The notes under the pieces were generated by a model. It saw only the letters and a program-made list of their open reading frames with translations, ran no database searches and was not told the origin of the DNA. The position numbers and the translations under genes were made by a program. Below, piece after piece: positions 63,238-63,381 of a DNA stretch of 64,000 nucleotides (positions are counted from its first letter, which is position 1; every line of letters begins with the position of its first letter). Origin of the DNA: Escherichia phage vB_EcoM_DE17. The DNA is taken from sequence record OP595146.1; one strand, written 5' to 3'.

Positions 63238-63381
63238 ATTACCAGACCGTTGTTTATCATCTTAAGTGCTACCATTACACCAACTCGACATCTGCCGAGT
63301 GAAGGAATCGAACCTTCGCCTTTTCTTTACCGGAGAAATAGATTGTTTAAGTTTTGCTGTAAACGGTCTTCTGTAAATTTG
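63238..63381 (-). repeat. stem cassette, copy 1 (carries the permuted tRNA-like insert)
   Basis: Flanks attaccagaccgt (63238-63250) and ttttgctgtaaacggtcttctgtaaatttg (63352-63381) recur at 63875-63887 and 63923-63952. Inner 8-bp pairing AGACCGTT/AACGGTCT. Confidence 0.75.
63265..63338 (-). ncRNA. circularly permuted tRNA-like gene (Thr GGU-like anticodon loop), acceptor closed by a short loop
   Basis: Minus strand 5'-3': TTTCT-CCGGTAA-AGAAA AGGC GAAGG-TTCGATT-CCTTC ACTCGGC A GAT GTCGAGT TG GTGT-AATGGTA-GCAC T. This is positions 27-73, a 3-nt linker, then positions 1-26. Confidence 0.6.

Follow-up and report, generated by a model that had tools for sequence, protein, structure and literature searches.

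The element described here occupies positions 63238-63376 on the minus strand of a 64-kb stretch of Escherichia phage vB_EcoM_DE17 (sequence record OP595146.1), the whole of which is referred to as the window, and it combines the parts of a circularly permuted tRNA with two flanks that recur as a scaffold in neighbouring structures. The interpretation we propose, and regard as probable, is that the element is a small non-coding phage RNA of the Y type, nearest to the bacterial YrlA RNAs, which would partner a Ro60-like protein and would not act as a translational tRNA. A first-pass annotation of the window had recognized a permuted tRNA-like gene with a loop-closed acceptor stem nested in a stem cassette, and such a conserved element is genuine; what had been overlooked is the gene of a Ro60-like protein just outside the window and the nature of the flanks, which form a repeated, conserved scaffold. 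The parts of the element, named cassette C, are the following (the last coordinates of some lines are given 5' to 3' on the minus strand).

63238-63376, minus strand: cassette C, the entire putative Y-like RNA, scaffold and tRNA-like domain, matched end to end by the covariance model R1 (see below) with 161.8 bits.
63369-63362 with 63251-63244, minus strand: outer, or terminal, helix AGACCGTT with AACGGTCT, 8 bp, enclosing all the other parts.
63362-63369, minus strand: 5' strand of the terminal helix, AGACCGUU, paired 8/8 with 63244-63251 and preceded by a conserved CAGA-A.
63354-63363, minus strand: single-stranded motif UUUACAGCAA, the putative protein-binding signature of the scaffold.
63322-63338, minus strand: V stem-loop UUUCU-CCGGUAA-AGAAA (TTTCT-CCGGTAA-AGAAA in the DNA, 63338-63322), followed by AGGC.
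63301-63317, minus strand: T arm GAAGG-UUCGAUU-CCUUC (GAAGG-TTCGATT-CCTTC, 63317-63301).
63283-63300, minus strand: loop-closed 7-bp acceptor-like stem (AS), made of ACUCGGC, the loop AGAU and GUCGAGU (ACTCGGC at 63300-63294, then A, then GAT; GTCGAGT at 63289-63283, paired 7/7 with one G-U, then TG).
63266-63282, minus strand: UG linker (positions 8-9) and D arm GUGU-AAUGGUA-GCAC (GTGT-AATGGTA-GCAC, 63280-63266, then T).
63242-63251, minus strand: 3' strand of the terminal helix, AACGGUCU, followed by a conserved GG, with the same evidence as the 5' strand.

Read from 63338 to 63265 on the minus strand, the element presents tRNA positions 27-73, then GAT, then positions 1-26, and each part of this permuted order, the acceptor pairing and the outer helix included, is found as the first-pass annotation had described it. 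The tRNA elbow and the 12-bp stack of the acceptor and T stems are intact, and the D loop retains the GG for the elbow contact with the T loop. When positions 1-26 are rejoined to positions 27-73, a canonical cloverleaf is obtained, which ARAGORN calls tRNA-Thr(GGT). The native locus, which is not a colinear cloverleaf with free 5' and 3' ends, gives no ARAGORN call, and the Rfam tRNA model covers its 3' half only, with 22-23 bits against a cut-off of 29. The minimum free energy (MFE) structure computed by RNAfold is exactly the proposed multi-way junction. A strict scan requiring a T arm, a closed 7-bp stem and a D arm yields a single site in the 64-kb window, and reversed control sequence amounting to about 0.9 Mb gives 1 hit; a chance origin of the element is excluded. 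The short inner helix next to the junction (CUUA/UAAG) is present, as had been noted, but it is weakly conserved, with 75% of cells paired. A search for a bulge-helix-bulge (BHB, 3-4-3) at the leader/trailer junction did not find one, this region being predicted to form a helix of 8 bp and a weak one of 4 bp, with large asymmetric loops. A scan for a promoter or a terminator belonging to the element found nothing specific, and co-transcription with the tRNAs, which in the neighbourhood do encode CCA, is therefore assumed.

The conservation of the element was followed in the Felix O1-like phages, where the 161-nt region is found at a coverage of at least 80% in 245 phage records. In an alignment (A3) of 17 distinct variants from the genera Felixounavirus, Suspvirus and Mooglevirus (Ounavirinae), on which the figures of this paragraph rest, 94.7% of the cells of the whole structure are paired, versus about 47% when the partners are slid. 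The closed acceptor stem occurs as ACUCGGC/GUCGAGU, ACACGUU/GGCGUGU and ACCCUUC/GAAGGGU, with three pairs altered on both sides and 99% of the cells paired, and these compensatory changes extend across the three genera. The T arm is invariant except for one A-to-G change, seen in Felix O1, where it turns the pair into a G-U; the D stem does not vary, D-loop position 63271 is variable, and 99% of the cells of the terminal helix are paired. Furthermore, a C-to-U change in the 3' strand of the terminal helix of Moogle produces a U-G pair that is tolerated only on the RNA of this strand, and the motif UUUACAGCAA is invariant in 17/17 variants. The hairpin at 63338-63322 is kept in the relatives with a variable sequence and loop length. 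Its anticodon-like loop is CCGGUAA, with C33, in the window; Felix O1 and many relatives have only 6 nt, CGGUAA. The loop reads CUGGUAA in Suspvirus and Sf13 and CUAURAA in ESh22 and L030, and Moogle has a different small hairpin. The constraints expected of decoding (a 7-nt loop, U33 and a conserved anticodon) fail in this loop, and no colinear tRNA-Thr was found at this position among the relatives.

The expectation that standard tRNA finders would miss the element is borne out by the silence of ARAGORN, but some pipelines catch its 3' half. In the record REP7 (L001:368-498, OQ174506.1), a 131-nt tRNA-Thr_GGT is annotated from inside the sibling cassette B, described below, to the equivalent of A73, an artefact that exists because the 3' half of the element is an orphan. 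REP10 bears the same artefactual tRNA-Thr_GGT, and other records a tRNA-OTHER.

The flanks of the element belong to a scaffold whose layout is AAG, a helix, UUACAGCAA, a variable stretch, a helix and CUG, UUACAGCAA being single-stranded and placed just after the 5' strand of the terminal helix. The window contains three copies of this scaffold, cassette C and the two following.

63383-63460, minus strand: cassette B, AGACCAA-AUUCAGCAA...UUGGUCU-GG, a sibling scaffold without the tRNA-like domain.
63875-63947, minus strand: cassette A, whose flanks are near-identical to those of cassette C and whose payload is a short AU hairpin.

The payload of cassettes A and B is limited to short AU-rich hairpins, and cassette A is nevertheless matched by model R1 with 45.6 bits (E = 1e-7). 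The consensus of the cassettes can be written CAGA-AGACC-NNN-U-N-CAGCAA ... N'N'N'-GGUCU-GG, and the helix positions adjoining the core covary between cassettes, with CGU/ACG in cassette C versus CAA/UUG in cassette B. Cassette B is kept in Felix O1, Suspvirus and Mooglevirus, and Felix O1 has a fourth copy of the scaffold just past the window's end (L044:23867-23944). The motif listed above for 63354-63363 is likewise present in cassettes A and B and in scaffolds of unrelated phages. The copies devoid of a tRNA-like payload (AGACC/GGUCU with UUACAGCAA or AUUCAGCAA) are likely to be sibling Y-like RNAs, comparable to YrlB. We rejected the possibility that the flanks are those of a promoter or a mobile cassette (T4 PeSL-like or MITE-like inverted repeats): the promoter/terminator scan found nothing specific, the inverted repeat ends at 8 bp, and the flanks act as an RNA helix, as seen from their G-U pairs and covariation.

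The second component of the proposed system is the protein encoded next to the tRNA cluster. In Felix O1 the cluster is preceded by ORF42, a 471-aa 'RNA-binding protein', and wherever a related locus extends far enough, this gene is found on the strand of the element, about 1 kb upstream of it. The ORF42 protein belongs to the Pfam families DUF2828 and DUF7788 and to PHROG 850, and it carries the conserved MIDAS motif DVSGSM. A single-sequence search of the PDB with this protein found nothing. Its AlphaFold model (pLDDT 84) has a predicted Ro60-like fold: the top 12 PDB matches in the fold comparison are all Ro60/TROVE proteins, over the full length and with E values from 1e-8 to 1e-6, and they include the Ro60 of Thermus phage phiLo, Xenopus and human Ro60 and Deinococcus Rsr. 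Homologues are found in 709 phage records, those of mycobacteriophages being annotated 'Ro-like RNA binding protein', and the DUF2828 family extends over phages of Gram-negative, Gram-positive and actinobacterial hosts, Pfam also recording eukaryotic members. For the same protein in phage Bas63, gp130, a preprint shows both a Ro60-like nature and activity against the Ppl defence system; that some of the downstream 'tRNAs' might be Y RNAs was no more than a guess of its authors (bioRxiv 10.1101/2024.10.10.617714).

The association between the scaffold and this gene was examined in 75 diverse loci encoding homologues of the Ro60-like protein at 39-47% identity. The strict scan for a T arm, closed AS and D arm detects loop-closed elements on the gene strand in L055, L058, L062, L066, L076, L095 and L103; their closing loops include GAAA, GUAA and UUA, and tandem tRNAs are therefore excluded in these loci. 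Their terminal helices differ in sequence and are always complementary, and a (U)UCAGCAA-type motif stands 2-4 nt past the 5' strand. The covariance model R1, which was built from alignment A3, gives full-length matches beside the gene in L076, L066, L055, L103, L058, L095, L081, L050 and others, at 28-64 bits and all on the gene strand. As a MAFFT alignment of the diverse elements (A4) was too rough in the D arm for counting, a model-based alignment was used instead. In this model-fitted alignment of 37 hits from diverse phages, 93.4% of the cells are paired versus 40-46% when slid, each of the 29 pairs varies on both sides, and covariation reaches a score of 0.59 versus at most 0.10. The terminal helix is paired in 95.7% of the cells, with up to 5 pair types per position, and the T arm in 98.8% with covariation; the D arm covaries as well, and the strands of the AS, different in sequence from one phage to another, remain complementary.

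Applied genome-wide, a first scan for helix plus motif carried much noise: the gene strand gave 215 hits, the opposite strand 104 and reversed sequence 53. Only the positional test, limited to 500 nt, is informative. In this test the scaffold stands on the gene strand within 500 nt past the stop codon in 41 of the 73 diverse loci, versus 4/73 on the other strand and 5/63 and 5/57 in control windows. Scaffolds without the tRNA domain (about 55-65 nt) are even commoner than those bearing it, and scaffolds beside the gene also occur in very distant members, from phages of Mycobacterium, Staphylococcus, Listeria and Campylobacter. Thus Mycobacterium phage Rumpelstiltskin has three scaffolds and then a terminator (L125:4445-4710) after gp54, the 'Ro-like RNA binding protein', and manual inspection of the middle scaffold (L125:4507-4635) reveals a T arm, a closed acceptor stem and a D arm; the organisation is the same as in Felix O1, the proteins being only 33% identical. 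Three scaffolds follow the gene in Staphylococcus phage BE02, two precede it in Campylobacter phage CP81, and three lie upstream of it in Listeria phage LMTA-94. These data reveal an undescribed family of scaffold RNAs that is widespread in phages.

Several observations were made alongside these counts. In LMTA-94 (L127:5807-7018) an RtcB-type 'tRNA-splicing ligase' is encoded 1.3 kb downstream of the Ro60-like gene, and together with the three scaffolds upstream this order recalls the rsr-yrlBA-rtcBA operon of Salmonella. In a metagenomic phage, three tandem scaffolds bearing the tRNA-like domain lie just upstream of the Ro60-like gene (L055:5281-5676; 51, 26 and 52 bits with R1). The tRNA clusters of other phages, on IMG/VR contigs of 14-184 kb (L007, L010, L016, L019, L039 and L043), also contain elements built in the same way. 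In the L007 group the scaffold is complete, AAGAUUAAUA-ACUGCAA...UAUUAAUCUG, and scores 50-59 bits with R1; L043 has the tRNA-like core only, with C-CCA in the loop. No Ro60-like gene was found for the L007 group and L043 within the stretches fetched.

Among known RNAs, YrlA is the closest relative in design. According to its discoverers, YrlA resembles circularly permuted tRNAs with closed acceptor stems and probably arose from dimeric tRNAs (Wang et al. 2018, bioRxiv 10.1101/312249). The order of its parts (terminal stem, V stem-loop, T arm, loop-closed acceptor stem, D arm, terminal stem) is that of the phage element, as are the conserved T and D arms and the variable AS and V. In both the ends pair, the outer helix of the element sitting at the anticodon-stem/Ro-binding position. 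The V stem-loop of YrlA, itself poorly conserved, is the counterpart of what the first-pass annotation had called an anticodon arm. In bacteria YrlA is encoded at most 4 kb from Ro60 on the same strand, often with siblings lacking the tRNA domain (YrlB), and its V stem-loop is optional. In the relatives, the gene about 1 kb upstream of the phage element on the same strand encodes a protein of predicted Ro60 fold, classed by Pfam as DUF2828 and not as TROVE, and siblings without the tRNA domain accompany the element. As YrlA RNAs, which are permuted-tRNA-like with a closed acceptor stem, have been reported in 22 phages, the remark of the first-pass annotation that it knew of none described in phages went too far. 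The putative partner of the phage element differs from that of YrlA by belonging to a divergent Ro60-like family (Pfam DUF2828/DUF7788, not TROVE), the element is embedded in a phage tRNA array together with extra scaffolds (two more in the window, three in Felix O1), and the V hairpin of this lineage looks like the anticodon arm of tRNA-Thr.

Another parallel is found in Thermus phage phiLo, where a phage Ro60 is accompanied by several adjacent phage Y-like RNAs (Yrl1 and Yrl2); this Ro60 binds phage Y-like RNAs and also the host PNPase, which it recruits (PMC12135203). In contrast to the element, the phiLo RNAs bear a CGAA motif and lie upstream of a canonical TROVE Ro60, and no tRNA-like domain is reported for them (PMC12135203). 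The permuted tRNA genes of Cyanidioschyzon merolae, other algae and archaea also have the 3' half first, a loop-closed acceptor stem and leader-trailer pairing, but they yield decoding tRNAs through cleavage of a BHB, circularisation and opening of the acceptor stem (Soma et al. 2007, as cited in bioRxiv 10.1101/312249). The phage element has neither a BHB nor a known endonuclease nor a conserved anticodon loop.

Several facts weigh against the assignment to the Y RNAs. The 5' region of the element, CAGAAGACCGUUUACAGCAA, is devoid of the GNCGAAN0-1G motif of YrlA and has UUACAGCAA instead; a GGCGAAG occurs only at the V/T junction, where conservation is lacking and the relatives have GGAGA or GGUGA. 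An Rfam search for YrlA-like families in the window and seven related loci, with E values up to 10, gave no such match apart from the partial tRNA one, the existence of a YrlA model in Rfam being unconfirmed. Although the MFE structure is the proposed one, the thermodynamic z-score is modest (-1.78 for the RNA strand and -1.72 for the opposite strand), and thermodynamics alone therefore cannot decide. The broad covariation count comes from an alignment fitted by the model, in which a few weak hits are probably ordinary tRNAs. As regards the protein, a Pfam search of ORF42 makes no TROVE call, the profile search against solved structures reaches no better than E = 0.69, for the Ro60 vWA domain, and the window ends inside a tRNA-Met, about 0.5 kb short of the gene. 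To our knowledge the E. coli hosts have no Rsr.

From the conserved structure and its neighbourhood we infer how the element would be expressed, bound by protein, cleaved by RNase P and employed by the phage. It consists of two modules, a scaffold made of a terminal helix closed by AAG...CUG together with UUACAGCAA, and a payload similar to the top half and elbow of a tRNA, with its T arm, loop-closed 7-bp acceptor stem, D arm and variable hairpin. The RNA would be transcribed within the tRNA cluster and its scaffold would be bound by the Ro60-like protein (Felix O1 ORF42, Bas63 gp130). The tRNA-shaped module would then be displayed to the tRNA-recognising factors of the host or the phage, which it would recruit or distract; candidates are RNase P, the CCA-adding enzyme, TruB/DusA, PNPase-type nucleases and the tRNA-targeting nucleases of defence systems. 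The particle would thus act in tRNA/RNA surveillance or in counter-defence. RNase P may also open the loop, which is plausible because the closed stem is 7 bp long; the RNA would then be in two pieces that stay joined through the acceptor stem and the terminal helix. Such a two-piece RNA, already raised in the first-pass annotation, is possible by analogy with its direct precedent, the YrlA of M. smegmatis, a molecule with a 7-bp closed stem that RNase P cleaves and to which CCA is then added (Chen et al. 2014, PMC4201824).

Part of this evidence could be read without the protein. A decoy role is possible for the element, and a stand-alone tRNA mimic that acts as a decoy or sponge for tRNA-binding enzymes or tRNA-targeting defence nucleases, and does not need the Ro60-like protein, would profit from the intact elbow and the 12-bp stack, from the likeness of the V loop CUGGUAA of Suspvirus and Sf13 to the anticodon loop of tRNA-Thr(GGU), and from the known use of phage tRNA clusters as counter-defence tools. 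This alternative is nevertheless unlikely, since the module of terminal helix and UUACAGCAA is common to siblings without a tRNA-like part and tracks the Ro60-like gene across unrelated phages, and the anticodon-like loop is not conserved. A further alternative is a functional permuted or split tRNA-Thr(GGU), which RNase P cleavage, trimming, CCA addition and possibly ligation would make fit for translation. The rejoined sequence scores as tRNA-Thr(GGT), the acceptor stem has 7 bp, an N-CCA is found in the acceptor loop of Mooglevirus (Moogle G-CCA-AACA), L043 and L103b, and the M. smegmatis YrlA is both RNase P-cut and CCA-bearing (PMC4201824). The anticodon-like loop is unconstrained across the relatives, however, and this argues against a decoding tRNA: with C33 in the window, a loop of 6 nt in Felix O1 and in many relatives, loop and stem replaced in Mooglevirus and ESh22, a V hairpin that is short and unlike an anticodon arm in other phages, and no bulge-helix-bulge at the 26/27 junction, we give the translating tRNA-Thr very little credence. 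Nor do we know of a splicing endonuclease in these hosts, which counts against it further.

Two other explanations were considered. As a non-functional relic, the element would result from the tandem duplication of a tRNA followed by deletions; its layout is indeed like the junction of two tandem tRNAs, the Moogle loop is like a 3' CCA followed by a spacer, and YrlA itself is thought to derive from dimeric tRNAs (bioRxiv 10.1101/312249). The compensatory changes of the acceptor stem and the lack of a colinear tRNA-Thr in the relatives refute this reading, which the first-pass annotation had left among its possibilities and which is hardly tenable for a sequence kept in 245 records of Felixounavirus, Suspvirus and Mooglevirus with invariant T and D arms, the same design recurring beside the same gene in unrelated phages. 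If, on the other hand, the tRNA-like fold were a punctuation signal that only directs the RNase P cut of a polycistronic transcript, the cassette helices being nuclease sites, its position within a co-transcribed tRNA cluster and the lack of a promoter or terminator specific to it would be accounted for, and tRNA-like precedents exist elsewhere, such as MALAT1/mascRNA (bioRxiv 10.1101/312249). But real tRNAs stand on both sides and make an extra RNase P site unneeded, and the conserved single-stranded UUACAGCAA and the link with the Ro60-like gene would be left unexplained, so that we consider such a signal most improbable. The Y-type RNA partnering the Ro60-like protein is the reading that we retain.

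The scaffold, without its payload, also resembles the Class I RNAs of Dictyostelium (RF01414; Kjellin et al. 2021, PMC7919456). These have a short terminal stem whose sequence varies and whose pairing is kept, they start with AAG and end with CUG(U), like the versions of about 60 nt without a tRNA domain, and directly past the 5' strand they carry the 11-nt CCUUACAGCAA, which is found exactly in many phage scaffolds (L063:1535-1592 and many of L053-L124). The window cassettes have GUUUACAGCAA or AAUUCAGCAA at the position of this motif. RF01414 is the top Rfam match of the window cassettes, with 12.8-15.1 bits for a cut-off of 41.5, and it matches the phage scaffold L063 end to end with 25.4 bits (E = 0.004), which is under the same cut-off and was obtained in a narrow scan only; an Rfam scan of ten loci with E values up to 1 gave no RF01414 match. 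Unlike the phage scaffold, which sits in a tRNA cluster, the Class I RNAs are eukaryotic, are reported to be unique to Dictyostelia and have their own DUSE promoter element; their known binder is the RRM protein Rnp1A, and no link to Ro60-like proteins is reported. We can only tentatively suggest, with more doubt than conviction, that the scaffold (AAG, short helix, (CC)UUACAGCAA, variable region, helix, CUG) would be the ligand of the entire DUF2828 family of Ro60 paralogues and that the Class I RNAs would fall in the same class. If so, they would be the Y-type RNAs of a Ro60-like protein and not an invention restricted to the dictyostelids, and the permuted tRNA would be one optional effector module plugged into an ancient scaffold. 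Should the match reflect common ancestry or a common partner, it would open the unsolved question of the role of the Class I RNAs.

Other structures were observed in the tRNA cluster. Immediately downstream of cassette C (63097-63240, minus strand) comes another structured RNA, distinct from the cassette and about 144 nt long. It has a terminal helix of about 24 bp, an MFE of -48.4 kcal/mol with z = -5.56, six pairs kept by changes on both sides in the relatives and an inner hairpin loop containing AGCAA, and Rfam gives no match for it. A 21-nt motif, GTTCTTACGAG(W)(R)T(Y)CTT(W)AA, occurs at 63465-63485 and 60163-60183 (minus strand), two copies for 0.02 expected, each inside a TTAAAG...CTTTAA-type palindrome; similar palindromes are found near 62530-62560 and 61860-61945. 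Finally, the spacer between tRNA-Thr and tRNA-Val at 61365-61455 (minus strand) shows long-range complementarity, GAGGUC...CUGAAGACCG...CUUCAGACCUC, and may be another structured spacer RNA.

In conclusion, our observations provide the anti-Ppl Ro60-like protein, whose RNA partners had so far only been guessed, with specific and previously unannotated candidates and with a putative binding motif. They also explain the artefactual 'tRNA-Thr' and 'tRNA-OTHER' entries of the databases. Tying the element to this protein would extend tRNA mimicry of the YrlA type to a second and much larger Ro60-like family, present in hundreds of phages, and the location of these RNAs in or beside tRNA clusters points to a role in the surveillance or repair of tRNAs or in counter-defence.

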